From a virus, in the IMG/VR virus record IMGVR_UViG_3300020172_001601, positions 64,198-128,197 of that record: a stretch of 64,000 bases of DNA; one strand, written 5' to 3'. A model generated the notes under the pieces. That model had not been told where the DNA came from. It worked only from the letters and a program-made list of their open reading frames with translations, and did not search any database. This document shows positions 1 through 12,997 of the stretch, in pieces. The position numbers were made by a program, and so were the translations under genes. Positions within the stretch are counted from its first letter, which is position 1. Every line of letters begins with the position of its first letter.

Positions 1-1
1 A

Positions 2-442
2 GTGCATCCTGGTTTTGTGGCTTGGGCGAAGAAGACCCAAGAGAACGCTTTGTATGCTACCGAGCGTACAACCAAGTTGAAGCCCGGTGCTACCTTCCGT
101 CGATTCTTGGCGACTGATAGCGGCGACAAGAATGGGTCGCAGTCCATTGTCAATAACCTCAAGCAAGAAATCATCACGGCGGTTGGAGCCATCGGTGGCG
201 ATATTCAATCCCTGTTGACCGCAGTGGACTTGGCTACTGAAAACCGTGAGAAGGCTCATGTTGAAACTCTCCAAGGCGTTCTGAAGGAAATCATTGTTCA
301 GGCATATGCTGAACTGTGGGAATACTTGCAGAAGCAACTTCAGGATGAGCGTGCCAAGCTGCAAAAGGAAATGCAGGAAGCCGCCAACAAGCTGAAGAAT
401 GATTTCGTGTATTACATGGACCAAAAGAAAAAGGTGTGGTAA
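2..442 (+). CDS. hypothetical protein, 5'-partial, helical/coiled-coil-like
   Basis: ORF runs in from window edge; Q/K/E-rich repeats; overlaps start of next ORF. Confidence 0.4.
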   Translation: MHPGFVAWAKKTQENALYATERTTKLKPGATFRRFLATDSGDKNGSQSIVNNLKQEIITAVGAIGGDIQSLLTAVDLATENREKAHVETLQGVLKEIIVQAYAELWEYLQKQLQDERAKLQKEMQEAANKLKNDFVYYMDQKKKVW

Positions 443-1482
443 TGGCCAATATCCAGGATACGATCCGTCGTATTCAGGAGGAAGCGAAACGCACGGTCGA
501 GGCTGCTCGTTTTAGCAAAAGCAAGCCGCCGATTCCCAAGGTCGCTGTTACTCCTGTCGCAAAGGTTCCCACGACTGATGAAGTCGTGGCGAGCCTTCGT
601 GAGCAGCTTTCTACGGCTATCGCTCAAGCATTGTCCACCAAGGCTGCACGCCGTTATATTGGCGACGTGACGGAAGAATTACAGGATATTGCTGCCGAAG
701 CTATTGAGAGCGCTCGGAACACAACCGACTTTGGTGGTGCTGTTAAGACTGGTGATAAAGTCATCATCTATCCCAACAATTGCAAACTTCTTGTGCAGAA
801 CGAGAATGGTCGTGGGTCTTTCATTATTGAGGAAGCCCCTCAATATCGAACAGTATTGACTCATAGTGGGCGAAAGCCACAGACCTATCGTATTCCCATG
901 CCATACATGGTTTACCTGATTGGTTTCCAATACCAAGGTGGTGAATATTACCATGCTGGTTCCGGTATTGGTTTTGGGAAAGAGCCGATTGATTCGATTG
1001 ACACTCGGATGCTTATGCCAAAGTTGCCGCACACCCAGGGCAATATGCACATTTGTCAGCCGATGAATAAAACCAATCACAAGACCGTAAAAGAGTTGGG
1101 CGAATATGTAGTTCAGACGTTTTGGAGTACCATCTTCCATTACTCGTTTGCACACTCACGTTGCCAATTCAAAGTCGATGGCAAGAGCATCAACAGTTTT
1201 GCTGATTGGGCTAAGATCAAAAATCCTCTTGATATTCTCAAGGGCGATTTTGAGCGGGGACAATCCGTTCAAGAAGTTTTGGGCCACTTTGGTCAAGTAC
1301 AAGAGACTCGTGGAACCAATACTGCCAATCACAAGATTCAGTCAGCGGTAACTCGTGTTGTAAACGGTGTCAACAGAAGCCTTTCGGCTGAAGAATTGTC
1401 GGATGTTATTCGCAGGACGGCAGAAGAAATCGTCAATGTTGCACTTCAAAATGCCATTGGCGATTCTGCTTTACAGCATTGA
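436..1482 (+). CDS. hypothetical protein directly upstream of the JAMM-E1-Ubl operon
   Basis: 348-aa ORF; no firm family match; contains segment LPHTQGNMHIC loosely reminiscent of a UBC-type HPN..C motif (speculative). Confidence 0.45.
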   Translation: MVMANIQDTIRRIQEEAKRTVEAARFSKSKPPIPKVAVTPVAKVPTTDEVVASLREQLSTAIAQALSTKAARRYIGDVTEELQDIAAEAIESARNTTDFGGAVKTGDKVIIYPNNCKLLVQNENGRGSFIIEEAPQYRTVLTHSGRKPQTYRIPMPYMVYLIGFQYQGGEYYHAGSGIGFGKEPIDSIDTRMLMPKLPHTQGNMHICQPMNKTNHKTVKELGEYVVQTFWSTIFHYSFAHSRCQFKVDGKSINSFADWAKIKNPLDILKGDFERGQSVQEVLGHFGQVQETRGTNTANHKIQSAVTRVVNGVNRSLSAEELSDVIRRTAEEIVNVALQNAIGDSALQH

Positions 1483-1498
1483 AAATCAGTGGTATAAT
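1470..1498 (+). promoter_or_regulatory. sigma70-type promoter TTTACA-N17-TGGTATAAT driving the JAMM-E1-Ubl operon
   Basis: -35 1470-1475, -10 1493-1498, 17-nt spacer; between upstream ORF stop and JAMM start. Confidence 0.6.
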
Positions 1499-1557
1499 CT
1501 TCCCACTCGATACGTTGTCGGTTTCAAGTTCAACAAGTTCTTTCACTGGAGTACCAA

Positions 1558-2481
1558 ATGGCAGACCAACCTCCTGTTCCCCTCGCACTGTTTCCGGTGT
1601 ATTTGTTCGATCATGAATTCGAGCCGCCGAAGACGGGAACGTATTATCTCGTCACCAAGACGGGCATCTATCTGCACAAAGAAACCAAGGCGGGCAATGC
1701 ACTCGTCAAGGTCGAAGGTATTCCTTGGTTGCAAGAGCCGACCATTGAATTCCGTCTCAAGCTGCCGAAGATTCCGGGGAGCATCATCGGTCAGGCCCTT
1801 ACCTTCTTTCGGAAGGTGTTTCAACAGTACAAGTCCGAAGCGTATGTGACGCTTTTGTACAGTGCCAAGTTGAATCAATATCGTCTCTGGTGTCCGGCAC
1901 AGAAGGTGTCCGCTGCCAGCGTCAACTACGACCGCACCGACCAGCCTTCGTTCGAGGATCGTCAGTCCAACGATTGGCAGATGTGTGGCACGATTCACTC
2001 GCACTGTGACTTCAGCGCCTATCACTCCGGCACGGATATTGGCGACGAAGCCAGCTTCGACGGTATCCACATTACCCTGGGCCACGTCAATCGGGCGCAG
2101 TTCAGTATGGAAGCCAGTGTCGCCATCAACGACAAGCGTGAGAAGTTGGAACCAGAAAACTGCTGCTCCGGCGTTATCCGGGTTTCCAACAAGGAAGTTG
2201 TTTCTCGCCCATACATGACCTGGGGTGAAAGTTGCTTCTTCGATCTCGAATTGTCGGAAGAAGACGCACAACAGCTTGTTGCTGATACGGCCATCATCAA
2301 CGCCGAGTGGATGCCCAAGGTCGAACACAATGGCTGGCAGGGCAACCAGATGGGCTTCTACGGTGGTGGAGGCAACTGGAAGGGCAAGGGGTCAAAAAAA
2401 AACGGAAACGATGATCTCTTCGACCAAGGCCCCGATGAAGGTACTGCCGACTGGTGGCGAAATCAGAATTTCATCGACTAA
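1558..2481 (+). CDS. JAMM/MPN+ family metalloprotease (deubiquitinase-like)
   Basis: Exact JAMM motif H-x-H-x7-S-x2-D in HSHCDFSAYHSGTD; GGAG RBS 9 nt upstream; first gene after promoter at 1470-1498. Confidence 0.75.
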   Translation: MADQPPVPLALFPVYLFDHEFEPPKTGTYYLVTKTGIYLHKETKAGNALVKVEGIPWLQEPTIEFRLKLPKIPGSIIGQALTFFRKVFQQYKSEAYVTLLYSAKLNQYRLWCPAQKVSAASVNYDRTDQPSFEDRQSNDWQMCGTIHSHCDFSAYHSGTDIGDEASFDGIHITLGHVNRAQFSMEASVAINDKREKLEPENCCSGVIRVSNKEVVSRPYMTWGESCFFDLELSEEDAQQLVADTAIINAEWMPKVEHNGWQGNQMGFYGGGGNWKGKGSKKNGNDDLFDQGPDEGTADWWRNQNFID

Positions 2482-2570
2482 TTGAACCTGATCGTCTTGA
2501 ACCTGATCGCCCTTTGGCTCTCTAGGTGTTTAGCAAAAACTCAATCTCCAATAACGAAGGGAATAGCCTC

Positions 2571-3341
2571 ATGGCAACAAAGAAGGCGGCGAAGGACGAA
2601 TCACCCGTCGCCAAGAAGCCGCTCAAGATTAAGGTGATTGGAACGGGCGGCATCGGCCTTTGCCTGCTTCCTTCGCTCTGTCGATACCTCAACTATAACG
2701 GCGAGAAATATCCCGCCGTGGAAGTGAGCCTGATCGACGGCGATACGTTCGAGGAACGCAATCGTGAGCGACAGGACTTTGTTGAGACGGGGCCGAAGGC
2801 GTCCATGACCGCTGCCGAATATCGGGGCAAATTCCCACGACTGATGTTTTGGGACCATCCGGTATACGTCGCCGATCACAACGTCATTCAGTTGATTCGG
2901 GAGAACGATATTGTTCTTCTCTGTGTGGATAATCACAAGACCCGCAAGCTGATTAGCGACCGGGCCGAAGAACTGAAGAATGTTACCGTCATCAGTGGCG
3001 GCAACGATTGGACTGATGGAAACGTGTTGCTTCATATTCGACGGGATGAGAAGAACCTGACGCCACCTTTGGCGAGCAAGTTTCACCCGGAGATTTTGAA
3101 TCCGACCGACGAGAACCCTGCCGACGTGGAACAGAAGGCAGAAGGTTGTGCAGAGTTGGCTGTTGCTGCACCGCAACTGCTGATTACGAACAACTACATT
3201 GCCGCCAACATGCTGGCGGGACTGTACAACGTGATTGACGAAGGGCGATACGAGAAGGTTCTCGCCGCTCCGCACAATTTCGCAGAGGTCTACTGTGATC
3301 TCTCCGTGATGAAGTCCATCCCACGAGAACGCAAGGTGTAA
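2571..3341 (+). CDS. E1-like adenylyltransferase (ThiF/MoeB/ubiquitin-activating family)
   Basis: Rossmann motif KVIGTGGIG; DGDTFEERNRERQ and CVDNHKTRK resemble ThiF/MoeB adenylation motifs; alternative GTG start at 2526. Confidence 0.7.
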   Translation: MATKKAAKDESPVAKKPLKIKVIGTGGIGLCLLPSLCRYLNYNGEKYPAVEVSLIDGDTFEERNRERQDFVETGPKASMTAAEYRGKFPRLMFWDHPVYVADHNVIQLIRENDIVLLCVDNHKTRKLISDRAEELKNVTVISGGNDWTDGNVLLHIRRDEKNLTPPLASKFHPEILNPTDENPADVEQKAEGCAELAVAAPQLLITNNYIAANMLAGLYNVIDEGRYEKVLAAPHNFAEVYCDLSVMKSIPRERKV

Positions 3342-3406
3342 TCCTTCGTTCGGTTCCACAAAACATACAGAAGTTTCTTTCTCAACCGTGACAGGAGTAA
3401 TTAGCA

Positions 3407-3739
3407 ATGGCTCAAGAGCAGAAAAAGCCGGGTGGTGGGTTTTCCAACAAGAAGGCGTCGAGCGAGACGCAGTTACCACAAGGTCAGACCAGCGCCCCAA
3501 GCGCTCAGGATGCCTTGGCAAAGCTGGACGCAGCCGTGAAGGTCATTCACGGTGCCAACGACGGGTCGTTCAATCTGGCTGGATCGAAGGTTTCGACCGT
3601 TCGAGCCTCGCTGGTGGACGCCTTCAATATTCCCGGTGACGCTCAAACCTTCGTCAACGGCGAACAGGTCGATGCCAACTACACGCTCCAGAGCAACGAC
3701 ACTCTGGAATTCGTGAAGCAGGCTGGAGTCAAGGGTTAA
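3407..3739 (+). CDS. ubiquitin-like beta-grasp protein (ThiS/MoaD-like), C-terminal Gly
   Basis: C-terminal VNGEQV..LQSNDTLEFVKQAGVKG resembles the ThiS/MoaD fold and ends in Gly; disordered N-terminus; AGGAG RBS; third gene of operon. Confidence 0.6.
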   Translation: MAQEQKKPGGGFSNKKASSETQLPQGQTSAPSAQDALAKLDAAVKVIHGANDGSFNLAGSKVSTVRASLVDAFNIPGDAQTFVNGEQVDANYTLQSNDTLEFVKQAGVKG

Positions 3740-3789
3740 GGACTCAGAATGAGCGCATAACTAAGGTGGTTATGCAGTGTTTCGATGGT

Positions 3790-3817
3790 TAACCACAGGC
3801 TCACAAGCCTGTGGTTA
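3790..3817 (+). terminator. perfect 12-bp hairpin after Ubl operon (no T-run)
   Basis: TAACCACAGGCT-CACA-AGCCTGTGGTTA. Confidence 0.35.
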
Positions 3818-3856
3818 CAACCATAGGTATGAGCCTATGTAGAAAGGGTATCTCAG

Positions 3857-4360
3857 ATGAGATTTATTGTAAGTTGTTTTGCTTTGATGGCTGTCATTCC
3901 AAGTGTATGTTTTGCTCAAACGTCATGTGTGAATGGCATTTGCAATACATCAAGGGTTGTTTCTAAACATGATCTTGGTGGATTTAATTTGGCCCCTGGA
4001 GAAACTTTGGTTTCTGTCAATGGAGTTCCAGTTTCTCAATTGCAAGGGCCTTTGGTTTCGGCGGCGCAAATTGTCAAAGGTTTTGTCGGTGCAGTTGATG
4101 CAATTAGTAGCCGCATAGTCAATCGTGACTCTGCTGCTTACAACCACGCATTACGAGAAGCGCAAATTCTGGCAAACAACAGGTGGAAAGGCCACCCGTT
4201 AGGAGTAGCCCCTGGTTGCTCTTACTCAGGAACGGGGACAAGTTCTCATCCTGAAGCCCCGAATCACTGTTACGCCGGAAGTTCAGAAAGTCGATTGGTG
4301 GCTAGAGCATGTGTGCTTGGATCAGATGGAAAGTATTATTGGTCTGCTCACTATCGTTAA
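3857..4360 (+). CDS. secreted protein of unknown function (signal peptide), AT-rich possible moron
   Basis: N-terminal MRFIVSCFALMAVIPSVCFAQ signal peptide; visibly lower GC than flanks. Confidence 0.5.
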   Translation: MRFIVSCFALMAVIPSVCFAQTSCVNGICNTSRVVSKHDLGGFNLAPGETLVSVNGVPVSQLQGPLVSAAQIVKGFVGAVDAISSRIVNRDSAAYNHALREAQILANNRWKGHPLGVAPGCSYSGTGTSSHPEAPNHCYAGSSESRLVARACVLGSDGKYYWSAHYR

Positions 4361-4397
4361 TTGGAAGTCACAGTGGAAGCCAATAAAATAAATGCAC

Positions 4398-4436
4398 AAG
4401 GCGGGCGTGCCATCAGTACGCCCGCCTTGTTTCGTT
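4398..4436 (+). terminator. rho-independent terminator
   Basis: AAGGCGGGCGT..ACGCCCGCCTT stem then GTTTCGTT. Confidence 0.6.
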
Positions 4437-4497
4437 ACAATTTCTTGTAGTTCATTGAAAGAGCATTGTATACAAATCTACTATTCCGTGGTAAGAT

Positions 4498-5190
4498 ATG
4501 TCCATGAAAACCACAGCACGCTTGATTTGCATAGGTGACATACATGGTTGTGCCAATACTCTTCGAGTAATATTGAAGGATATTGACCCACAACCAGAAG
4601 ACTCTTTCGTATTTCTCGGCGACTATATCAACCGTGGTCCTGACAGCAAGGGCGTGATCGACCAGATCATTGCTCTCGGCGAAAAGTGCCACGTCGATAC
4701 GATATTGGGAAATCACGAAGAAATGCTCTTGGGTGCATACCAAGGTGGCAAATCCGATCATGCGTTTTGGTGCAAGTTCGGCGGGGACCAAACGCTGGCA
4801 TCCTACGGAGTGAATAACGTCAAAGATATTCCCGGCCAGCATTTGTTGTTCATTGCTCATTGCAAAGAATATCTGGAAACAGATGACTTTATTTTCGTTC
4901 ACGCTGGTTGCGATCCTGATCTTCCGCTGGACAAGAATGACGGTGCCGCTTTGCGATGGAATAAATTGGATACCAAGCAGACCAAGAAGCACATGACAGG
5001 CAAGACTGTTGTGTGTGGTCACACAGTTCAGCGACAGATATTTGACTTGGGCTATATCTGTTGTATTGATACAGGGTGTGGCGTTTGGCCCGGTGGCCGA
5101 TTAACTGCGATTGACCTTCGCTCCGGCAAGATTTGGCAAGCCGGTGGAAGAAGCAAGAAGGCCACAATCAAGCAGAGGGAAAACACATGA
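4498..5190 (+). CDS. Ser/Thr protein phosphatase, PPP/calcineurin-like metallophosphoesterase (lambda-PPase-like)
   Basis: GDIHG, GDYINRG and GNHE motifs. Confidence 0.75.
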   Translation: MSMKTTARLICIGDIHGCANTLRVILKDIDPQPEDSFVFLGDYINRGPDSKGVIDQIIALGEKCHVDTILGNHEEMLLGAYQGGKSDHAFWCKFGGDQTLASYGVNNVKDIPGQHLLFIAHCKEYLETDDFIFVHAGCDPDLPLDKNDGAALRWNKLDTKQTKKHMTGKTVVCGHTVQRQIFDLGYICCIDTGCGVWPGGRLTAIDLRSGKIWQAGGRSKKATIKQRENT

Positions 5191-5624
5191 GCGGATTCAA
5201 GCCAGCAGGAGCCTTCGCATATAAAACCAAGGATGGTCAAGAAACCGTTGCAGCTACGGCGAGTATGGGTTTGGTGCATTGGTATATGAGATCGTTGCCT
5301 AAGTTGGGCGATGTTCCTGATCCTTTGCCGGTCCTCGAAGTGACACCGATGGCGAGGGAGTTTCCTGGGCCATATGAACCGAACTTTTTTACGGTCGTAA
5401 TCGGCTGCATCGAGAGAACTTATGGAACAGCGCCGGAAATCGCTTCTGAGTTTTTGAGTCGAGAATGGTACAATAATCTACCAGAACGCCTTAACGACCA
5501 TAAGATTGTTGTTCAGGCTCGTCGTGATGCCGACCCTAAAGTGGTCGCTTACGAGGAAGTTTGCCTGGGCATCCTCAAGTGGTTGGCAAAGTATGGAGAC
5601 ATTATTGACCTGGAGGAACCTTGA
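5187..5624 (+). CDS. hypothetical protein
   Basis: ORF with internal ATG start after preceding gene. Confidence 0.4.
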   Translation: MSGFKPAGAFAYKTKDGQETVAATASMGLVHWYMRSLPKLGDVPDPLPVLEVTPMAREFPGPYEPNFFTVVIGCIERTYGTAPEIASEFLSREWYNNLPERLNDHKIVVQARRDADPKVVAYEEVCLGILKWLAKYGDIIDLEEP

Positions 5625-5870
5625 GCGATTTGGTGATGTGGATATGTATCGGCACGATGCTGATCGTACTCACTGAGATTTTTGGTCCGCTTTATGTAAA
5701 GTATTTCTGGCATGATCCAGAACGCCGCCTCAAAGAAATTGAGCGGCAAAATGCTTTGCTTGACAGAATCGAAAACTTCTGATATTCTCTGAGCAGTGAA
5801 ATAAACCGGGGCAGCGATGCCCTGGTTCTTTTGAAAAACAAAAAGAAAGTCGCCAGAAACCCAAATCGAC

Positions 5871-5899
5871 TTTACAAGCCTTGAAGACCGTGGTAGAAT
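5871..5899 (+). promoter_or_regulatory. sigma70-type promoter TTTACA-N17-TGGTAGAAT, first of tandem pair
   Basis: -35 TTTACA 5871-5876, 17-nt spacer, extended -10 TGGTAGAAT. Confidence 0.6.
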
Positions 5900-5968
5900 G
5901 ATTGCACAACGCTGATGAAACCGACGACGGAATCAAAAAAGAAAAGTTGTCGGAAACCTGAAGTGGAC

Positions 5969-5997
5969 TTTACAAGGATGGAAAGCTGTGGTAGAAT
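5969..5997 (+). promoter_or_regulatory. sigma70-type promoter, second of tandem pair upstream of tRNA-like cluster
   Basis: TTTACA-N17-TGGTAGAAT; upstream block repeats sequence from first copy. Confidence 0.6.
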
Positions 5998-6127
5998 GAT
6001 GACACAACGGAAATGATCCAGCAACCTTGCAGCGATGGTTGATGGGTAACAAGGGTGTGTGAGGGAGGCGCTGTGACCTCCGCACTTAATGTAAACCTGT
6101 AAAATGGTTTCGCCCTTAAAACGATAT

Positions 6128-6218
6128 GGCGAGGTAGCTCAGTCTGTTAGAGCATTGTGAATAGGGGCCGAAAGGTCTACTAACGCAAGGGTCGGTGGTT
6201 AAAATCCATCCCTCGCCA
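6128..6218 (+). tRNA. oversized tRNA-like gene (91 nt); anticodon stem TTGTG/CGCAA encloses a 24-nt loop with GAAA-tetraloop hairpin
   Basis: Acceptor GGCGAGG/CCTCGCC, D-arm GCTC..GAGC, T-arm GGTGG-TTAAAAT-CCATC. Confidence 0.4.
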
Positions 6219-6295
6219 CTTTGTAAGTCAAATGCCGTCAGGACTACATTTGCAAAACGTAACGTCTTGGCAACCATTTGTTGACTTACATTTAT

Positions 6296-6410
6296 GGACT
6301 GTTAGCTCAGTGGCCTGTTTACAGGGAAGCCGGTTGTATTAGCCGAGAAATCGGATGATACAAACACTTCAGAGCGTCGTAGCAATACGAAGGTCGATGG
6401 TTCGATTCCA
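6296..6410 (+). tRNA. oversized tRNA-like gene (115 nt) with ~60-nt D-loop insertion and a 4-nt loop where the anticodon loop should be
   Basis: Acceptor GGACTGT/ACGGTCC, T-arm GATGG-TTCGATT-CCATC; internal GAAA/GCAA tetraloop hairpins. Confidence 0.4.
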
Positions 6411-6424
6411 TCACGGTCCACTAT

Positions 6425-6602
6425 GGGGAAGTAGTAGAATCCAACTCAGAGCAGTTGGAGTGGAAAAGCAGTTTAGGCTCACGGAGCAATCCGCATGTTG
6501 ATGGGGAAACCCATAAACATGAACCAAGAGGGGCGACCCTCGAACAACTGCCGAGAATACCGGGGTAACTCGGTGATGCTGGTTCGAGTCCAGCCTTCCC
6601 CA
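6425..6602 (+). tRNA. tRNA-like termini (GGGGAAG...CTTCCCC plus T-arm) separated by 178 nt; may be one interrupted gene or composite
   Basis: 5' acceptor/D-like start and 3' CTGG-TTCGAGT-CCAG T-arm with complementary acceptor strand. Confidence 0.25.
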
Positions 6603-6606
6603 CTAC

Positions 6607-6717
6607 GCAGCGGTAGCTCAAATAGAACCGTTTTACAGGTAGTGGCAACATTACTTGCATTTGGTAGAGCCTTCCGTAAGGAAGAGGTTGAAGGTGAGAG
6701 TCCTTCCCGCTGCACCA
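6607..6717 (+). tRNA. oversized tRNA-like gene (110 nt) with ~38-nt D-loop insertion and encoded CCA
   Basis: Acceptor GCAGCGG/CCGCTGC, D-stem GCTC/GAGC enclosing insert, T-arm GAAGG-TGAGAGT-CCTTC, ACCA end. Confidence 0.35.
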
Positions 6718-6880
6718 TGCTGGGGTAGTAGAATTGGAATGTATGACTAGGAAGCGACATGAGGTTGTAATGACCTTTAATTCGCCCCCATGACCATACA
6801 GAGAACGCTACAGTAATGTGGAAATGCAGGTTCGAGTCCTGCCCCCGGCACTTAACATTCAACACACAGGAGATTGCACG

Positions 6881-7351
6881 ATGGCATCAATTTCGCTTGC
6901 GAAGGCCCTGAAGCTGAAGAACCGTCTGGCTGGTCGTCTGAACAAAGTTCAGAATGATATTGTGACGTACAACTCAGTCCTGACCGAACAAGCGGGCAAA
7001 GTTGATGTTCCCGCTCTGTGCAAACTGCGTGATGAGATCGCCGACAACCTCATCGCATTGAAGACGAAGATCATCGTCTCCAATGCTGAGATTCAGGGCG
7101 ACCTGATTCGTCAGGGAGAATTGAAGTCCAAGTTGACGTGGCTTGCCACGCTCGACACCCGTGACGGCAAGGAACGTCATGGCTACCAAAACACCGAAGT
7201 AACCTGGACGGCCACGCTCAAGAAGAAAGACGTGGACGACGAAACCAGGAAGCTGGAAACCGAGATCGACGCCATCCAGGATAAGCTGGACAGCTTCAAC
7301 CACACGAAGAAAGTGGAAGTTGCTGATCGTTCGCTCGAACTCGCCAGCTAA
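6881..7351 (+). CDS. hypothetical protein (coiled-coil-like)
   Basis: AGGAG RBS then ATG at 6881; track ORF 6818 start trimmed because it began inside a tRNA-like gene. Confidence 0.45.
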   Translation: MASISLAKALKLKNRLAGRLNKVQNDIVTYNSVLTEQAGKVDVPALCKLRDEIADNLIALKTKIIVSNAEIQGDLIRQGELKSKLTWLATLDTRDGKERHGYQNTEVTWTATLKKKDVDDETRKLETEIDAIQDKLDSFNHTKKVEVADRSLELAS

Positions 7352-7392
7352 CGAGCCACCACGATCCGGGAGAGTAAGAGGGTCTGTGAGGA

Positions 7393-7440
7393 AACTATCG
7401 GGGGCTTCGGCCACCGATGGTCGTTTCTCCGAAAGGAGAG
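7393..7440 (+). terminator. two consecutive stable tetraloop hairpins (UUCG then GAAA) after ORF
   Basis: ATCGGGGGC-TTCG-GCCACCGAT and TCTCC-GAAA-GGAGA; contains GGGCTTCGGCCA 12-mer also found in tRNA-like inserts. Confidence 0.35.
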
Positions 7441-8146
7441 ACATTACATATTGTTCACGGTCAAGGTGACGCCTTATAGTTGAAACCTGATCGACTCAAA
7501 ATGTAAGCCTCAAGCTACAAAACTTTTCCCCTCCTGGCTTTCCCTTTTCCGGGTCGTGGCCTTTTCATGAACGGTAACTTCAGACGCTTAGTACGCAACC
7601 TTCGGAGGCAATCCATGAAGACTTACATCTTCACTCTCACAGATGAAGCGCAGGCAGAACCAGCACGGTTCTTGCCGTTCATCGAGAGCGAACTTGCTGC
7701 CCAGGGTTGTAGGAATTTCCAATACCTCACAGAAGTTGGTTGCATCACAGCCGACTTCCCAGGTGAACGGACTTTCGGCCCGATCAACGGTATCGGATCA
7801 GCGGAAGAAAGCGTCGATTGCACGACGCAAGCGTAACATGCCTTGGAAGGGGACCAGCATCCTCCCCAAAGTTGACTATATGTTGGTGATAGGTAGCATC
7901 TTCGGATGCCAACCCGCTTTAAGAACAAGCCAAACGTCTAGTGCCGAGTAGCTTGTTCTCCAACATGACTTCTACCTAAAAGGTGGAAGCGGCCCCTTCC
8001 AGGCACCTTATAACCCGATGGGCGTGGCGCAGCCCTAGTCAAAACGATATGCTCTACTGATTAGTAGTAGCTGGCGTATACTACGGGACACAATCAGTGG
8101 TGTATCTACCTTAAACGGTGGGCAGCAGCCCCCATCGGGTTCCTTC

Positions 8147-8452
8147 ATGACACTTGCTGAATTGAAAGACAACTGGCAAAAGTACGGCGTGGATATTCAA
8201 GGTCAGATCAGGCCCTTGAAAGATTGCTTTGTGATTTGTTGGGGACCGATGCCCGATATTCCCGATGCCCTGTTGTTCGATACAGGCGGCGAACAAGGCG
8301 CACCGGCATATGCGTTGAAGGTGGGAGAGAATGGGGAAGACCTGATTTCGGTCAACCCGGCCAATCCAGCCGAGACGACCGTGCTGGGGAAGTTGGTTCT
8401 TTTGGAAAATTCTGGAAATCGCAGTGAACCTTTTCCAGATTCGACTCTCTAG
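8147..8452 (+). CDS. hypothetical protein
   Basis: 101-aa ORF. Confidence 0.35.
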   Translation: MTLAELKDNWQKYGVDIQGQIRPLKDCFVICWGPMPDIPDALLFDTGGEQGAPAYALKVGENGEDLISVNPANPAETTVLGKLVLLENSGNRSEPFPDSTL

Positions 8453-8602
8453 TAATGTGCGGACGTGGAGGGCCGATATGTGTGGCTTTCTCTCGGCAGT
8501 CACATATGGTTAGCGAAGCCGGGAGTTTTTGAAAAAATAGATGACGAAAAAATTTCTTGGAAAAGTGAACCTTTTTTTGAAGTAAGTCGTCTATAATACT
8601 GT

Positions 8603-8673
8603 AGCGGGTTGGAGGAGTGGTTCCTTGCAAGGCTCATAACCTTGAGACACTGGTTCGAGTCCAGTACCCGCCA
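8603..8673 (+). tRNA. tRNA-Met/Ile2 (anticodon CAT); 1-72 unpaired (A1/C72)
   Basis: Anticodon arm CAAGG-CTCATAA-CCTTG; T-arm ACTGG-TTCGAGT-CCAGT. Confidence 0.7.
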
Positions 8674-8696
8674 CTAGGTCGAAAGACCTTATATAT

Positions 8697-8770
8697 CGTA
8701 GGGTGGAGCAGTCTGGTAGCTCGCAAGGCTCATAACCTTGAGGCCGCAGGTTCAAATCCTGCCCCTGCCA
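8697..8770 (+). tRNA. tRNA-Met/Ile2 (anticodon CAT), second copy; 1-72 unpaired (C1/C72)
   Basis: Same anticodon arm; D-arm GAGC..GCTC; T-arm GCAGG-TTCAAAT-CCTGC. Confidence 0.7.
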
Positions 8771-8771
8771 C

Positions 8772-8800
8772 TTTACAAGTCGAAAGACTTGTGGTAGAAT
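8772..8800 (+). promoter_or_regulatory. sigma70-type promoter TTTACA-N17-TGGTAGAAT
   Basis: Immediately 3' of tRNA; drives small ORF 8849-8986. Confidence 0.55.
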
Positions 8801-8848
8801 CTTGAAGTTCGATAAACAAACACACGGCTCGTTGCCGTGTCAGGAGAC

Positions 8849-8986
8849 ATGACAATGTTCGTTCAAATTACCAATATCGGTCGCTGGCATAATGGGCAAC
8901 AAGCCCAGCCACAGACAACGTGCGCCAAGCCCGCAGTGCGCACCGTCGTCGCCAATAAAGGTAATGAAGATACATTGCCTTCCTGA
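8849..8986 (+). CDS. small ORF (45 aa) with RBS and downstream terminator
   Basis: AGGAGA RBS, ATG 8849, followed by strong terminator at 9052. Confidence 0.3.
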   Translation: MTMFVQITNIGRWHNGQQAQPQTTCAKPAVRTVVANKGNEDTLPS

Positions 8987-9051
8987 CCGAACCATACAAG
9001 TTCGGCTCAGGATGCCTGAGCCGGACTGAAACAATATAAAGTTTCAGCAAA

Positions 9052-9089
9052 CCCCGCCCAGGCAAGAAAAGCCTGGGCGGGGTTTTTTT
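9052..9089 (+). terminator. rho-independent terminator
   Basis: CCCCGCCCAGGC..GCCTGGGCGGGG then TTTTTTT. Confidence 0.8.
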
Positions 9090-9103
9090 GTTGGATTTTT
9101 TAT

Positions 9104-9178
9104 TGCCGGGGGTTCTGTGCTGGTACGGAAACTTGACTCTGAATCAAGACGACGTAGGTTCGATTCCTACCCCGGCAG
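9104..9178 (+). tRNA. tRNA-Gln (CTG)
   Basis: U1-A72 acceptor TGCCGGG/CCCGGCA; anticodon arm CTTGA-CTCTGAA-TCAAG. Confidence 0.75.
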
Positions 9179-9242
9179 CTTCAAACTTGGGAGAATGATG
9201 ATGACAATGCACCGATATAAACGTGGAGCCATAACTGCATAT

Positions 9243-9315
9243 GGCTCCGACACCTTTAGTGGATGAGGCCCCGCCTTTTAAGCGGGTCAAGAGGGATCGT
9301 TACCCTACGGAGCCA
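9243..9315 (+). tRNA. tRNA-Lys(TTT)-like, atypical T-loop (possible pseudo-tRNA)
   Basis: Acceptor GGCTCCG/CGGAGCC, anticodon arm CCCGC-CTTTTAA-GCGGG; T-loop ATCGTTA. Confidence 0.45.
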
Positions 9316-9320
9316 CTTCT

Positions 9321-9405
9321 GCGCTCGACGCTGAATTGGTTGCAGCACCAGACTTTTAATCTGGTTTCCGCAAGGGACGTGTGGGTTCGAGTCCCACCGG
9401 GCGCA
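9321..9405 (+). tRNA. tRNA with anticodon TTT (Lys) carrying a 16-nt variable arm (85 nt)
   Basis: Acceptor GCGCTCG/CGGGCGC; anticodon arm CCAGA-CTTTTAA-TCTGG; T-arm GTGGG-TTCGAGT-CCCAC. Confidence 0.55.
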
Positions 9406-9430
9406 CTGTAACGAAATGAATGAACACTGA

Positions 9431-9856
9431 ATGAAACTGCAAGAATTGACGGGATTGAGTGACGCTGATCCGATTCATCGTTACTTAGGAATAGTGGATA
9501 GATTCCTTGGGGAACATGACTGGTTTGAAACTTGTCATAAACTCCAGAAGGACGAAGTGATTGAGGCGATGTGGTTGTGCCTCGGTCATCCAGTTCAATA
9601 TCCAATTGTTGAAGATTATTGTCTCGATAACTTCGAGGAATATCTTAAACAAAAAAGTGAACCTGAGATCGCCGATATTGTCTATAAGTTGAGGCGAAGG
9701 AAAGGGGAAGAAGGGATCGACAACCACGGGATTCGGGTAGTTATGATGTGGCTTATTGCCAATATCGACTATCTGAAAGAAAGATACTTGGAGGAAGGAT
9801 ACGGAAAACGCCATCGGAAAATAACAGCCGGTTGGTATCCAAGTATAGATGATTGA
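9431..9856 (+). CDS. hypothetical protein
   Basis: 141-aa ORF. Confidence 0.45.
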   Translation: MKLQELTGLSDADPIHRYLGIVDRFLGEHDWFETCHKLQKDEVIEAMWLCLGHPVQYPIVEDYCLDNFEEYLKQKSEPEIADIVYKLRRRKGEEGIDNHGIRVVMMWLIANIDYLKERYLEEGYGKRHRKITAGWYPSIDD

Positions 9857-9860
9857 ATAT

Positions 9861-9950
9861 TGTGAGATACGCTAGTTGGTAAGCGGCGAAGCTGTTAACT
9901 TCGTGCAATCCGTCTTGAACGGTACGCAGGTTCGACCCCTGCTCTCACAG
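9861..9950 (+). tRNA. tRNA with anticodon GTT (Asn) carrying a 22-nt variable arm (90 nt)
   Basis: Acceptor TGTGAGA/TCTCACA; anticodon arm CGAAG-CTGTTAA-CTTCG; T-arm GCAGG-TTCGACC-CCTGC. Confidence 0.55.
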
Positions 9951-9956
9951 CTTTCT

Positions 9957-10043
9957 ATTCCCGAACGGGAATAGAACGATCCCGAACGGGAATAATTTGA
10001 TGTTTTTGGCAACAGAATAGTCAAATTATTCCCGAACGGGAAT
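9957..10043. repeat. three copies of palindromic motif ATTCCCGAACGGGAAT within 90 bp between tRNA genes
   Basis: Copies at about 9957-9972, 9979-9993 (imperfect) and 10028-10043. Confidence 0.7.
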
Positions 10044-10047
10044 GAAA

Positions 10048-10121
10048 CGGGGTGTGGGCTAAAGGCGAGCCGCCTGCTTTGGGAGCAGGACAACGAGTGA
10101 GTTCGATTCTCACCACCCCGA
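10048..10121 (+). tRNA. tRNA-Pro (TGG)
   Basis: Acceptor CGGGGTG/CACCCCG; anticodon arm CCTGC-TTTGGGA-GCAGG. Confidence 0.75.
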
Positions 10122-10157
10122 CTCGGTTGGTTCTTTGACAATTTGGTGGCAAAAAAT

Positions 10158-10228
10158 GGGGTCGTGGTGAAACGGGATCACGTCTGCTTTGCAAGCAGAA
10201 ATTAAGGGTTCGATTCCCTTCGGCTCCA
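10158..10228 (+). tRNA. tRNA-Ala (TGC), G3:U70
   Basis: Acceptor GGGGTCG/CGGCTCC with G3:U70; anticodon arm TCTGC-TTTGCAA-GCAGA. Confidence 0.8.
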
Positions 10229-10240
10229 CTGGTTGATTGA

Positions 10241-10312
10241 CGGCGTATGTTGTAGTGGACTGCGAACTGCTCTGATAAGGCAGGAGTCCAGGTTCGATTC
10301 CTGGTACGCCGA
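10241..10312 (+). tRNA. tRNA-Ile (GAT)
   Basis: Acceptor CGGCGTA/TACGCCG; anticodon loop CTGATAA. Confidence 0.8.
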
Positions 10313-10318
10313 CTGAAT

Positions 10319-10386
10319 GGGGTAGCCTACGGGTAGGCTCTGTGCCTTGCAAGCACGGATATGGGGTTCAACTCCCCACTGCTCCA
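10319..10386 (+). tRNA. tRNA-Ala (TGC) second copy, shortened D-arm, G3:U70
   Basis: Acceptor GGGGTAG/CTGCTCC; anticodon arm TGTGC-CTTGCAA-GCACG. Confidence 0.6.
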
Positions 10387-10393
10387 CTGATAT

Positions 10394-10464
10394 AGGTGTG
10401 TGGTGTAGCGGTAGCACGCTGATCTCCAAAATCATCGGTGAGGGTTCGACTCCTTCCACACCTG
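10394..10464 (+). tRNA. tRNA-Trp (CCA)
   Basis: Acceptor AGGTGTG/CACACCT; anticodon loop CTCCAAA. Confidence 0.8.
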
Positions 10465-10517
10465 CTGAGTTTATTGGTTCTCGACAACTCTTCGGAGTAT
10501 AAAAACCAATACTGTAT

Positions 10518-10590
10518 TCCCTTGTAGCTCAATTGGTAGAGCGGCACGCTGTTAACGTGAAGGTTCTAGGTTCGAGTCCTAGCGAGGGAG
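10518..10590 (+). tRNA. tRNA-Asn (GTT)
   Basis: Acceptor TCCCTTG/CGAGGGA; anticodon loop CTGTTAA; standard class I. Confidence 0.8.
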
Positions 10591-10669
10591 CTTGGTTGAG
10601 AAATGTAGGTTCGATTCCTACCCTGAGTAAGAGTAGCATAATATGGCCTAATGCGACTCAACCAAATAT

Positions 10670-10745
10670 TGCCGGGTATTCGGTGTTGGTATCCGTTCTC
10701 TGCCTTTGAAGCAGAAGGTCGGTGGTTCGATTCCACCCCCGGCAG
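10670..10745 (+). tRNA. tRNA-Gln (TTG)
   Basis: Acceptor TGCCGGG/CCCGGCA; anticodon arm TCTGC-CTTTGAA-GCAGA. Confidence 0.75.
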
Positions 10746-10748
10746 CTA

Positions 10749-10995
10749 GAGAGTGTAGTGTGAATAGCCGCAGAGGTAAATTCACAAAAGTTGAAGGAAG
10801 TGCAAAGCTAAAACTGCAAGTAACAGTTGCAAAAGCTATAAAAACCGTGAGCGGCTGTAAGGGCCGACAGGCTTGGAGAAAATAACTTTGCATAGAGATC
10901 AATGAGTAGTGTTTCGAGATAAGCGGTAGGCAGCACAGAGGCTATAGCATTTGCAACCGGAGCCTCCAGTTTAGGTTCGAGTCCTAACGCTCTCA
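10749..10995 (+). tRNA. tRNA-like termini (GAGAGTG...CGCTCTC plus T-arm) flanking a ~170-nt structured insert (247 nt total)
   Basis: Complementary acceptor halves and TTAGG-TTCGAGT-CCTAA T-arm; no ORF inside; could be composite. Confidence 0.2.
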
Positions 10996-11008
10996 CTTGT
11001 TAGTTTAC

Positions 11009-11081
11009 GGTTCCGTGGTGTAGTGGTACTGCATACCTCCCTGTCACGGAGAAGGTACGAGTTCGATCCTCGTCGGAACCG
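11009..11081 (+). tRNA. tRNA-Asp (GTC)
   Basis: Acceptor GGTTCCG/CGGAACC; anticodon loop CTGTCAC. Confidence 0.8.
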
Positions 11082-11083
11082 CT

Positions 11084-11155
11084 GTGATTGAAGCCAAACG
11101 GTGCGGCGTCTCTTTGTGAAAGAGATAATAGTGGGTTCGACTCCCATCAATCACC
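11084..11155 (+). tRNA. tRNA-His (GTG), discriminator C73, no encoded G-1
   Basis: Acceptor GTGATTG/CAATCAC; anticodon loop TTGTGAA. Confidence 0.75.
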
Positions 11156-11167
11156 TGTTAGTTTTTT

Positions 11168-11240
11168 GGGCGTGGAGTTCGGTTGGTAGAACATCCCCCT
11201 GTCACGGGGAAGGCTGCGGGTTCAACTCCCGTCACGCTCG
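11168..11240 (+). tRNA. tRNA-Asp (GTC) second copy
   Basis: Acceptor GGGCGTG/CACGCTC; anticodon arm TCCCC-CTGTCAC-GGGGA. Confidence 0.8.
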
Positions 11241-11252
11241 CTAGTTAGTTTC

Positions 11253-11324
11253 GCCTTCGTGGTATAGTGGTATTACGCCTTCTTGGTAAGAAGGAAATCG
11301 TGAGTTCGATTCTCACCGAAGGCT
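11253..11324 (+). tRNA. tRNA-Thr (GGT)
   Basis: Acceptor GCCTTCG/CGAAGGC; anticodon arm CCTTC-TTGGTAA-GAAGG. Confidence 0.8.
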
Positions 11325-11327
11325 CTT

Positions 11328-11400
11328 GATCTTGAAGCTCAAATGGATGAGCGACCACTTGTCTAGTGGAAGGTTGTAGGTTCGACTCCTATTGAGATCG
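11328..11400 (+). tRNA. tRNA, anticodon ambiguous (loop TTGTCTA; GTC by position, pyrimidine at 37)
   Basis: Acceptor GATCTTG/TGAGATC; D-arm GCTC..GAGC; T-arm GTAGG-TTCGACT-CCTAT. Confidence 0.55.
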
Positions 11401-11467
11401 CTATGTTCATCAGGTCCGCTAACTTGGTGAACAGAAAGGTTGCGGCGAGTTTAGCGGCTCGTTTGAG

Positions 11468-11539
11468 GTTGTGTTCGTCTAGTGGTCTAGGATGCCGTCG
11501 TTGAAGACGGCGACATGGGTTCAAATCCCATACACAATC
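11468..11539 (+). tRNA. tRNA with non-canonical anticodon loop (6 or 8 nt, contains TTGAAG)
   Basis: Acceptor GTTGTGT/ACACAAT; T-arm ATGGG-TTCAAAT-CCCAT; anticodon stem GCCGTC/GACGGC. Confidence 0.5.
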
Positions 11540-11556
11540 TCGCAACTGAATTTTAT

Positions 11557-11635
11557 GGCCGTGGAAACGAAAGCTCCGTGGTGGGGCATCAGACTGCAAA
11601 TCTGACGTTAAGAGGTTCGACTCCTCCTGCGGCCT
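11557..11635 (+). tRNA. tRNA-Cys (GCA), enlarged D region
   Basis: Acceptor GGCCGTG/TGCGGCC; anticodon arm TCAGA-CTGCAAA-TCTGA. Confidence 0.65.
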
Positions 11636-11640
11636 CTCGA

Positions 11641-11708
11641 TTCGGGTTAGTGTAACGGTAGCACGGAGCCGTCAAAGGCTCCAGAGTGGTTCGACTCCAC
11701 ACCCTTAT
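11641..11708 (+). tRNA. tRNA-like gene, family member 1 of 3 (shared D-arm TAGTGTAACGGTAGCACG), anticodon-position loop only 6 nt
   Basis: T-arm AGTGG-TTCGACT-CCAC; stem GGAGCC/GGCTCC with loop GTCAAA. Confidence 0.4.
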
Positions 11709-11716
11709 CACAATAT

Positions 11717-11786
11717 GTTCTGTCCTGCGGATTCAGGCATTGAGTCTACGAAACTCGACTGGAAGGTTCGACTCCTTCACGGAACA
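11717..11786 (+). tRNA. tRNA-Arg (ACG)
   Basis: Acceptor GTTCTGT/ACGGAAC; anticodon arm TGAGT-CTACGAA-ACTCG. Confidence 0.75.
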
Positions 11787-11794
11787 CTTGATAT

Positions 11795-11865
11795 GCCCGG
11801 TTGATGAAATGGTATCGTGTCTGCATTACAAGCAGAATTCGGGGGTTCGATTCCCTCACCGGGTA
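11795..11865 (+). tRNA. tRNA-Val (TAC)
   Basis: Acceptor GCCCGGT/ACCGGGT; anticodon arm TCTGC-ATTACAA-GCAGA. Confidence 0.75.
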
Positions 11866-11878
11866 CTGGATTGAATAT

Positions 11879-11950
11879 GGCCCATTCGTCTACTGGCTAG
11901 GACCGCTGTTTTTCAGGCAGCAGAAGACGGATCGAAACCGTCATGGGTCA
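11879..11950 (+). tRNA. tRNA-Glu (TTC), T-loop ATCGAAA
   Basis: Acceptor GGCCCAT/ATGGGTC; anticodon loop TTTTCAG. Confidence 0.75.
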
Positions 11951-11955
11951 CTTAG

Positions 11956-12030
11956 TTGTTGGATAAATTAGTGTAACGGTAGCACGCCTCTCACCAAGGG
12001 GAAGATTGGTTCGATTCCAATACCAACAAC
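11956..12030 (+). tRNA. tRNA-like gene, family member 2 (extra ATAAATTA between acceptor and D-stem; 6-nt loop ACCAAG)
   Basis: Acceptor TTGTTGG/CCAACAA; D-arm GTGTAACGGTAGCAC; T-arm ATTGG-TTCGATT-CCAAT. Confidence 0.4.
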
Positions 12031-12032
12031 TA

Positions 12033-12105
12033 AATGAGACAAATTAGTGTAACGGTAGCACGCTCCCGTGGAGGGAGAAGATTGGTTCAACTCCAATACT
12101 CATTT
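12033..12105 (+). tRNA. tRNA-like gene, family member 3 (extra ACAAATTA; 5-nt loop GTGGA)
   Basis: Acceptor AATGAGA/ACTCATT; same D-arm; T-arm ATTGG-TTCAACT-CCAAT. Confidence 0.4.
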
Positions 12106-12107
12106 AC

Positions 12108-12992: not shown

Positions 12993-12997
12993 CTCTT

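Follow-up and report, generated by a model that had tools for sequence, protein, structure and literature searches.

The 64,000-nucleotide stretch of virus DNA analyzed here (hereafter the window) probably carries most of a phage-encoded E1-E2-ubiquitin-like protein (Ubl)-isopeptidase cascade of the PRTRC/"6d" type. The cassette encodes a Ubl with a G-x-K-G end, an E1 of the ThiF type, a JAMM peptidase (JAB) whose zinc site is intact, and two paralogs, gA and gB, that are related to the Pfam family Prok-E2_D (Table 1). PRTRC stands for ParB-related, ThiF-related cassette (TIGR03734-03742) and corresponds to what Iyer, Burroughs and Aravind 2006 described as operon type "6d", a Ubl/JAB/E1/E2 operon of plasmids and ICEs (PMC1779556). 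The literature that we searched gave no function for PRTRC/"6d", a cassette that plasmid and ICE annotations have listed since 2006; judged from titles and abstracts, PRTRC appeared there as an annotation term only, with no tie to ubiquitin biology. The phage cassette itself was not described in the literature searched for PRTRC together with ubiquitin, for Prok-E2 names, for phage Ubl or E1, and for jumbo phage together with ubiquitin.

Table 1. Cassette features and their positions in the window.
Feature	Position	Strand	Remarks
gA, E2-like paralog A (370 aa): C-terminal 146 codons in the window	2..442	+	Prok-E2_D match
gB, E2-like paralog B, 346 aa	442..1482	+	candidate catalytic Cys205 at 1054-1056
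Promoter-like site TTTACA-N17-TATAAT, extended -10 TG	1470..1498	+	score 11/12; overlaps gB 3' end
JAMM/MPN+ metallopeptidase (gene 1, JAB), 307 aa, PRTRC_A-like N-terminal domain	1558..2481	+	Prok-JAB, PRTRC_A matches
E1-like adenylating enzyme (gene 2), 256 aa, single ThiF domain	2571..3341	+	Pfam ThiF, PRTRC_ThiF matches
Ubiquitin-like beta-grasp protein (gene 3, Ubl), 110 aa	3407..3739	+	C-terminus AGVKG; Gly110 at 3734-3736
Perfect hairpin, 12-nt arms 3790-3801 and 3806-3817, 4-nt loop	3790..3817	+	arms 100% complementary; 3' of the Ubl gene

The JAB, E1 and Ubl genes are co-oriented on the + strand and are separated by gaps of 89 bp (JAB-E1) and 65 bp (E1-Ubl). A preliminary description of the window had reported these three genes with their motifs, a promoter and a hairpin, and direct reading of the sequence confirmed every one of them. 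The motif TTTACA-N17-TAnAAT was found in 10 copies in the window, on the + strand each time, where 0.01 copies were expected, indicating that it is a genuine recurrent promoter type of the phage genome. The three genes had been taken for an operon with a single promoter. The site before gene 1 is present as described, whereas a second copy of the motif lies upstream of the unit that holds a sigma factor gene, a gene for a 168-aa protein, gA and gB; thus two phage promoters appear to drive the units sigma factor/168-aa protein/gA/gB and JAB/E1/Ubl. The hairpin is likely a transcript end or stabiliser. RNA folding of region 3740-3860 gave z = -3.9; a T tract is absent downstream of the hairpin, which was not among the calls of the terminator scan. 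The huge-phage setting with translation genes was also borne out, as tRNA and aminoacyl-tRNA synthetase genes are present. Note that PHROGs assigned no functional family to the cassette genes.

Peptidase, activating enzyme and modifier

Gene 1 had been described as a JAMM peptidase, and profile searches agreed with this. JAB matched Pfam Prok-JAB with E 2.9e-5 (score 24.3, just below the cut-off of 25) and PRTRC_A with E 1.5e-7, the latter over profile positions 18-188 of 192, and the JAB family profile matched Rpn11/PSMD14 (E 0.004) and AMSH. The single JAB sequence gave no match when run against PDB by phmmer; the family profile later reached Rpn11. Residues 147-160 are HSHCDFSAYHSGTD, the JAMM zinc site (1996-2037). 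The predicted catalytic set consists of Glu94 and His147-x-His149-x7-Ser157-x2-Asp160. The exact JAMM motif was found in 75 of 75 non-redundant orthologs, with E94, H147, H149, S157 and D160 invariant.

The length of the E1 was counted from ATG, and GTG at 2526 is an alternative start. The motifs VIGTGGIG, DGDTF..RNRERQ and CVDNHKTRK were read directly in gene 2, and its assignment as an E1/ThiF enzyme was upheld by Pfam ThiF at E 1.7e-12 (47.5 bits, exceeding the curated cut-off of 28.1). The best NCBIfam match was PRTRC_ThiF (E 1.2e-14), and the E1 family profile matched MoeB (E 1.9e-8), Uba4 and SUMO E1. The adenylation residues G24, G26, D56, R67, Q68, K76, D120 and R125 were invariant in all 74 phage E1s compared. 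In addition, the crossover-loop Cys193 (3147-3149), which aligns to the ATG7 catalytic Cys region, was conserved in 73 of the 74 as well as in all PRTRC ThiF proteins examined, and is a candidate thioester Cys of E1.

Gene 3 had been proposed to encode a beta-grasp protein with a terminal Gly, and both the motif VNGEQV...NDTLEFV and the G-x-K-G C-terminus (...AGVKG) are indeed present. In the model of the Ubl, residues 1-32 had low confidence, residues 33-41 formed a helix and residues 43-105 formed the beta-grasp; a beta-grasp fold and a flexible tail with a terminal Gly, the features by which Ubl modifiers, which are often made as precursors, are recognized, were found together. The C-terminal motif (A/S)G(V/T)KG was observed in 100 of 117 homologs. 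Among these 100, 43 stop at the motif, 52 extend beyond it by 1-15 aa of unrelated sequence, and long tails are present in 5; unrelated short tails beyond the terminal Gly in many orthologs are the pattern of processed modifiers. The Ubl gave no match to Pfam Prok_Ub, and its family profile gave none to PDB sequences. Since hhalign aligned the Ubl with PRTRC_C over just the last 12 residues, we do not claim homology to Prok_Ub.

E2-like paralogs upstream of the peptidase gene

The preliminary description had found no recognisable E2. We had to revise this point, because the two genes upstream of JAB belong to a family of which 29 of 64 members matched Prok-E2_D (E <= 0.01), with no other family recurring, and which has an invariant Cys and a near-invariant Asn. 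Note that gA is cut by the window edge and so could not be seen whole by the author of that description. Its start lies 670 bp before the window, in DNA taken from contig L006, which is identical to the window at positions 1-13000, and its core Asn163-x7-Cys171 falls outside the window. The start codon of gB (ATG at 442) shares a nucleotide with the TAA stop of gA (440-442), and gA and gB are translationally coupled. The two are distant paralogs (BLASTP E 8e-6), and the genome has a third.

The match of gA to Prok-E2_D had E 0.0025 (18 bits, under the cut-off of 25), and that of its ortholog on contig L005 had E 1.6e-6 (28.4 bits, above the curated cut-off). More distant members of the family likewise matched Prok-E2_D; gB itself did not. 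In canonical E2s, the spacing from the oxyanion Asn to the catalytic Cys is 8. The consensus of the E2-like family is L-x-N-I-x6-C-x-G, in which the near-invariant Asn stands 8 residues before the Cys, and this Cys (C205 of gB) was invariant in 79 divergent members averaging 18-19% column identity. In gB, His197 is found where the family has Asn.

The link to PRTRC was also seen in this family: gA matched PRTRC_B with E 0.029, and hhalign of the E2-like family against PRTRC_B gave probabilities of 36-71% (best E 3.7e-5, at 71%) with the N-x7-C-x-G motif aligned. When the phage E2-like and Ubl profiles were run by hmmsearch against PRTRC B and C proteins, no PRTRC protein was matched, so that hhalign was needed to link the E2-like family with PRTRC_B; the sole match was gp196 of a Bacillus phage. 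The structure search did not confirm a UBC fold for the family, and its profile had no matches among PDB sequences. The name Prok-E2 is in itself no proof, as the domain called Prok-E2_C proved to be an adenylation domain without activity in BilD (PMC10557695).

Relatives of the cassette and alternative readings

By sequence comparison, the closest curated families of the cassette are PRTRC A, B and ThiF, not Bil. The best curated matches of JAB, E1 and gA were PRTRC_A, PRTRC_ThiF and PRTRC_B, respectively, and the order E2-like (B), JAB (A), E1 (ThiF) is the same in both (the canonical set being that of locus L089). Both have an extra N-terminal domain on JAB, a short single-ThiF-domain E1 with the same conserved Cys, and N-x7-C-x-G in the E2-like protein; the C-terminal motif of PRTRC protein C is G(A/T)KG, sometimes followed by a short tail, as the phage Ubl ends in G-x-K-G, and both cassettes reside on mobile genetic elements. 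However, the scores stood far below the equivalog cut-offs (ThiF 54.2 vs 144.75, A 31.2 vs 101.8, B 13.7 vs 131.45), and the PRTRC proteins, although the best matches, are distant relatives only. The phage Ubl gene follows E1, whereas that of PRTRC precedes E2, and the phage Ubl has a 40-aa N-terminal extension besides lacking a Prok_Ub match. The phage E2-like gene is present in two copies (three in the whole genome) and encodes long helical extensions, and the carrier is a phage instead of a plasmid or ICE. No match to ParB, PRTRC_E, PRTRC_F/alpha-hel2 or Prok_Ub was obtained for the genes scanned around the cassette.

The earlier label "Bil-type" did not survive these comparisons. Bil E1s have the multidomain architecture IAD-AAD-CYS (PMC11601596), whereas the phage E1 is a single ThiF domain of 256 aa with its Cys in the crossover loop. 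The E2 families differ as well, and Bil is a host defence, whereas the phage cassette is a conserved phage gene block. In PADLOC, no cassette component matched any model beyond generic E1 similarity, and these negative scans ruled out filing the cassette with any of the defence systems listed, Bil and CBASS included. The cassette could still be Bil-like cargo for antiviral or inter-phage competition, tagging structural proteins of rivals (superinfection exclusion) and not serving the phage's own infection programme. The PADLOC result and the single-domain E1 speak against this too, and, unlike mobile defence cargo, the cassette keeps fixed synteny with sigma factor or RNA polymerase genes at E1 identities down to 38%; we regard such a role as improbable.

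Relatives were also found in isolates: the Bacillus jumbo phages vB_BauM_KLEB27-3 (gp196, gp195, gp194), vB_BceM_WH1 and Edson have a related trio. Its order is E2_D-like (Prok-E2_D E 2.7e-4), JAB with a "PRTRC_A domain" and ThiF; gp196 was matched by the phage E2-like profile with E ~1e-8, and the E1 Cys is kept. However, identity with the cassette E1 is only 26-29%, no Ubl is annotated beside E1, and the hosts, which are Firmicutes, differ. A phage-encoded beta-grasp protein and JAB peptidase are also found in TAPI/TAPK, the tail-assembly Ubl-JAB pair of lambdoid and T1 phages (row 5 of Iyer et al. 2006; PMC1779556). This pair has no E1/E2 and lies among tail genes, whereas the cassette includes genes for E1 and E2-like proteins and has no structural genes close by.

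Another reading is that the Ubl is a sulfur carrier of the ThiS/MoaD/TtuB type, adenylated and thiocarboxylated by E1 for tRNA thiolation or a cofactor, the JAMM peptidase merely maturing the carrier. The nearby tRNA and synthetase genes would fit. However, E1 is without a rhodanese domain, and no desulfurase, TtuA/PP-loop or other sulfur-insertion enzyme was found among the neighbours and the ten largest window ORFs scanned. Furthermore, the Ubl ends in G-x-K-G, not G-G, the adjacent partner family, which has an invariant Cys and the Asn spacing of E2s, is conserved (77 of 86 loci), conservation is equal in phages with RNA polymerase genes at the cassette, as judged from the cassette surroundings, and the nearest relatives are plasmid PRTRC genes, not biosynthetic operons. 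Given that partner enzymes were not found and that a Cys-bearing partner family is conserved, we rejected the sulfur carrier as very unlikely. We give hardly any credence to the E2-less three-gene pathway of the preliminary description, in which E1 would pass the Ubl straight to targets like Urm1/Uba4 or SAMP/UbaA: the JAB, E1 and Ubl genes do have their own promoter and hairpin, the structure search left the UBC fold of gB unconfirmed, and E2-independent conjugation is known for Urm1 (PMC9574740), but a gA/gB-type domain with an invariant Cys and Prok-E2_D matches in its family lies immediately upstream of JAB in those same 77 loci, and the canonical PRTRC order is identical (B, A, ThiF).

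Proposed cascade and distribution

In the PRTRC/"6d"-type cascade that we favor, the terminal Gly of the Ubl would be adenylated by E1, and the Ubl would then move onto Cys193 of E1 as a thioester. An E2-like protein would next accept it on its own Cys (gA Cys171, perhaps gB Cys205) and place it on lysines of target proteins, while the JAMM peptidase would remove precursor tails in the orthologs having them and undo conjugation. The role may lie in host takeover, counter-defence or virion maturation. Since the cassette is apparently co-transcribed with a sigma factor in huge phages and lies beside RNA polymerase genes in others, the transcription machinery would be one candidate target.

To our knowledge, every bacterial Ubl-conjugation system of known role (type II CBASS, Bil) is an anti-phage defence, and the phage side appears to hold the complete set of activities otherwise known from anti-phage systems. 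It is possible, though less likely than not, that phages, huge ones included, encode an E1-E2-Ubl-deconjugase cascade of their own that is complete, active and deployed offensively in infection; host or phage proteins would then be tagged to seize the cell or disarm its defence. If this is true, viruses of prokaryotes would have a "ubiquitin writer" of their own, and the PRTRC/6d class would gain its first function. Activity of the cassette would mean that phages both write a protein modification and erase it while infecting. The phage family also gives a second, independent context for deciphering the PRTRC/"6d" class, and the cultivable Bacillus jumbo phages with the related trio offer an experimental way in.

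The order JAB, E1, Ubl is kept in 84-85 of 86 loci, with the E2-like domain immediately upstream of JAB in 77. The cassette occupies a fixed position in ~85 viral contigs, many of them from uncultured phages, and its neighbourhood with phage sigma factor or RNA polymerase genes extends across very divergent phages. The E1 and E2-like families amount to about 900-1000 protein clusters in metagenomes. The E2-like protein of other phages carries a fused C-terminal region of ~570 aa.

JAMM peptidase, E1 and ubiquitin-like protein

The cassette formed by gA and gB (E2-like paralogs A and B), gene 1 (JAB/JAMM peptidase), gene 2 (E1) and gene 3 (ubiquitin-like protein, Ubl) is a new form, carried by phages, of the Ubl-conjugation systems predicted in prokaryotes as the PRTRC/6d class, an operon type of plasmids and ICEs. 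The three co-oriented open reading frames of the preliminary description, and every motif quoted for them, were present in the sequence. Gene 1 matched NCBIfam PRTRC_A over profile positions 18-188 of 192 (E 1.5e-7) and Pfam Prok-JAB at E 2.9e-5, its 24.3 bits falling just short of the Pfam cut-off (25). The exact H-x-H-x7-S-x2-D motif was found in 75 of 75 non-redundant orthologs, in which E94, H147, H149, S157 and D160 were invariant, and the family profile reached the deubiquitinases Rpn11/PSMD14 (E 0.004) and AMSH. The matches, the invariant motif and the link to Rpn11 bear out the assignment as a JAMM peptidase.

Gene 2 belongs to the ThiF family (E 1.7e-12, over the Pfam cut-off), and its best NCBIfam match was PRTRC_ThiF (E 1.2e-14); its profile also reached MoeB, Uba4 and SUMO E1. 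The E1 adenylation residues were invariant in 74 phage sequences, supporting, together with the ThiF match, the proposed ThiF/E1-type identity. Cys193 falls in the stretch aligned to the catalytic cysteine of ATG7 and was kept in all but one of these sequences (73/74), as well as in four PRTRC ThiF proteins and one Bacillus jumbo-phage ThiF. The E1 family had 902 matches in a 90%-identity cluster database, many of them on contigs of 350-670 kb.

Family searches with gene 3 returned weak matches only, to TGS and ThiS; the reading of the third protein as a Ubl was judged right. The motif (A/S)G(V/T)KG was present in 100 of 117 homologs, where it was terminal in 43, followed by unrelated tails of 1-15 residues in 52 and by long tails in 5; one tailed example reads ...AGVKG-NPPFGW. 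Such a pattern is to be expected of a modifier that depends on a peptidase to uncover its terminal Gly. Model confidence was low for residues 1-32, and the extreme N-terminus, MxQEQKKxxGF, was conserved among close relatives. Distant Ubl-domain homologs (proteins P0260-P0262, P0240 and P0245; locus L001, 1044-1628) carried a DNA-binding domain of the HTH_17/excisionase type at the C-terminus, and the terminal G-x-K-G is lost from most of these fusions. A lone E1, 61% identical, lies ~9 kb from one of them; that E1 belongs to an integrated element with PriCT, ArdC-N and an integrase in the chromosome of a Planctomycetaceae MAG.

E2-like genes upstream of the JAMM gene

Logan contig L006 matches the window exactly over positions 1-13000 and extends it upstream by 7.4 kb. 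The window begins within gA (370 aa); gB (346 aa) starts at an ATG (442) that shares a base with the gA stop codon TAA (440-442), and the two genes are distant paralogs (BLASTP E 8e-6). Their E2-like cores span about residues 75-260 in gA and 100-285 in gB. gA matched Pfam Prok-E2_D at E 0.0025 and PRTRC_B at E 0.029; its ortholog on a 602-kb contig matched Prok-E2_D at E 1.6e-6, over the Pfam cut-off, and the gB ortholog gave a weak match as well in these scans. Among 64 divergent members of the E2-like family, Prok-E2_D was the only recurrent match, found in 29 (E <= 0.01); still more distant members likewise matched it. The family comprises 1021 clusters at 50% identity.

Over 79 E2-like members, with an average column identity of 18-19%, one Cys was invariant (gB C205, gA C171). 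It lies in the consensus L-x-N-I-x6-C-x-G, with the Asn eight residues ahead of the Cys; in canonical E2s, the catalytic Cys follows the HPN Asn at the same distance. In hhalign comparisons with PRTRC_B, the motif was aligned to ...N-t-w-d-h-g-k-I-C-i-G (probability 36-71%, E 4e-5 to 4e-4). Note that the family Asn position is a His in gB. Since the Pfam family Prok-E2_C, despite its name, has turned out to be something other than an E2 (PMC10557695), gA and gB are called E2-like on sequence grounds alone. A third E2-like paralog (L006 4465-5565, 359-366 aa), with DUF2934 at its N-terminus, is located upstream of the sigma factor gene, and its motif LPNSHAEGTVCC has the N-x7-C spacing.

Genomic setting, related systems and proposed pathway

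We compared gene order in 86 loci, consisting of 80 IMG/VR loci and other fetched loci. The order JAB, E1, Ubl was kept in 84-85 of them, and an E2-like domain stood immediately 5' of JAB in 77. Huge-phage relatives share the order NAD ligase ... sigma factor, 168-aa protein, gA, gB, JAB, E1, Ubl, with a copy of the promoter motif just 5' of the sigma gene. The sigma factor and 168-aa genes directly precede and overlap gA behind this copy, an arrangement that recurs in huge-phage contigs L005, L011, L012, L032 and L091. Most other phages carry the E2-like domain as the N-terminal ~280 residues of an 820-890 aa protein, whose ~570-aa C-terminal region matched no known family (L025, likewise L015 and L060). 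The Ubl of the L025 group is ~155 aa long, and its N-terminal stretch matches an endonuclease VII-like PHROG. At the one locus examined, downstream of the cassette come a second ThiF-like gene (phrog_19840) and genes for the beta and beta-prime subunits of a multisubunit RNA polymerase. Among isolated phages, the relatives were all remote; Bacillus jumbo phages such as vB_BauM_KLEB27-3 (gp194-196) and vB_BceM_WH1 encode a Prok-E2_D-like protein, a "PRTRC_A domain" protein and a ThiF protein as a trio. Matches in bacterial and archaeal genomes were all in MAGs (57/57), most resembling binned phage contigs; the best was an integrated element of a Planctomycetaceae MAG chromosome.

The canonical PRTRC cassette of a Cupriavidus plasmid, which matches row 6d in Iyer et al. 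2006, consists of ParB, E, C (Prok_Ub), F (alpha-hel2), B (Prok-E2_D), A (DUF2016 + JAB) and ThiF. The phage cassette has in common with it the gene order (B, A, ThiF), the cysteine of the E1, the E2 motif and a Ubl ending in G-x-K-G. However, it is without ParB, E and F, its Ubl has no match to Prok_Ub, and it scores far under the PRTRC equivalog cut-offs throughout; it is sister to PRTRC rather than one of its members. The kinship with Bil, the bacterial antiphage conjugation system, had been drawn imprecisely, as PRTRC is closer: the Bil E1 is a multidomain IAD-AAD-CYS enzyme, and PADLOC scans gave no match in the phage cassette. The literature searched described no function for PRTRC or the phage cassette, and the Aravind-lab jumbo-phage survey did not mention JAB, ThiF or E1-like proteins, its two mentions of ubiquitin being unrelated.

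The best-supported reading of these identities and conserved residues is a phage-encoded conjugation cascade, of which we infer the chemistry and the targets. Ubl Gly110 would be adenylated by E1, probably forming a thioester at C193, and the Ubl would be accepted by the E2-like Cys and then passed to target lysines, while the JAMM peptidase would mature tail-bearing precursors and reverse conjugation. A role as defence cargo is possible, but neither the constant position of the cassette in the gene order of very divergent phages nor the negative PADLOC result agrees well with it. It is unlikely that the Ubl is a sulfur carrier, given the K-G C-terminus, the lack of a rhodanese domain in the E1 and of a sulfur-insertion partner among the genes scanned, the adjacent Cys-bearing E2-like family, and the conservation of the cassette beside RNA polymerase genes too, in other phages. 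A pathway without an E2, as the preliminary description had suggested, is contradicted by the upstream genes gA and gB, whose family has an invariant Cys and includes many Prok-E2_D matches.

Transcription signals and other genes of the window

Positions of the cassette genes and surrounding features (window positions unless a contig is named)
Feature	Position	Strand	Basis or remark
Sigma-70/ECF-type phage sigma factor gene	L006 5608-6306		1.1-1.8 kb upstream of window start (with 168-aa gene)
Conserved 168-aa gene, no assigned function	L006 6254-6760		Directly 5' of gA
Gene 1, JAMM peptidase, 307 aa	1558-2481	+	ORF
Gene 2, E1, 256 aa	2571-3341	+	ORF
Gene 3, Ubl, 110 aa	3407-3739	+	ORF
Promoter motif copies (starts)	1470, 5871, 5969, 8772, 18713, 25910, 38851, 44417, 47037, 61853	+	Motif search
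tRNA genes	8603-37036, plus 6128-6218, 6719-6850, 18044-18116	+	ARAGORN, Rfam
Trp/Tyr-class synthetase fragment	12283-12957		Translation/takeover gene
gp32-like ssDNA-binding protein	21100-21927		Translation/takeover gene
M16 peptidase	22410-23657		Translation/takeover gene
SPFH/Band 7 protein	31058-33004		Translation/takeover gene
Glu/Gln-class synthetase catalytic domain	37332-38240		Translation/takeover gene
Full class I (Leu/Ile/Val-type) synthetase	44475-47036		Translation/takeover gene
Cassette locus with fused E2-like domain	L025 4524-16683		IMG/VR contig of 224 kb; likewise L015, L060

The conserved promoter placed at 1470-1498 was recovered as TTTACA-17-TATAAT with a TG (score 11/12), and the motif is recurrent: TTTACA-N17-TAnAAT occurs in 10 copies in the window, all on the + strand, vs 0.01 expected, usually with (T/G)GGTA ahead of the -10 element. 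Just 5' of the first tRNA (6128) are two copies in tandem, at 5871 and 5969. The 12-bp hairpin is, as described, a perfect stem (3790-3801/3806-3817) with a 4-nt loop; it has no T tract and was absent from the intrinsic-terminator calls of the terminator scan. Directly 3' of it, a 167-aa Cys-rich protein (3857-4360) with a signal-peptide-like N-terminal segment, MRFIVSCFALMAVIPSVCFA, had no family match and was not conserved among the relatives examined. A NinI-like Ser/Thr phosphatase (4498-5190; Metallophos E 4e-15, phrog_246 E 6e-47) is encoded downstream of the cassette, with a homolog at the equivalent relative position in the 602-kb relative L005.

ARAGORN identified 49 tRNA genes, all on the + strand, and Rfam three more. 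Introns or insertions are suggested by the unusual length (86-132 nt) of several, e.g. Asn 9861-9951, Ile-tat 36944-37036 and 6719-6850; the anticodon loop is irregular in two (11467-11541 and 11639-11711). Among the phage tRNA genes, a 581-aa Ro60-like RNA-binding protein is encoded at 40135-41880, matching the Ro60 vWA domain at E 7e-16 and TROVE weakly.
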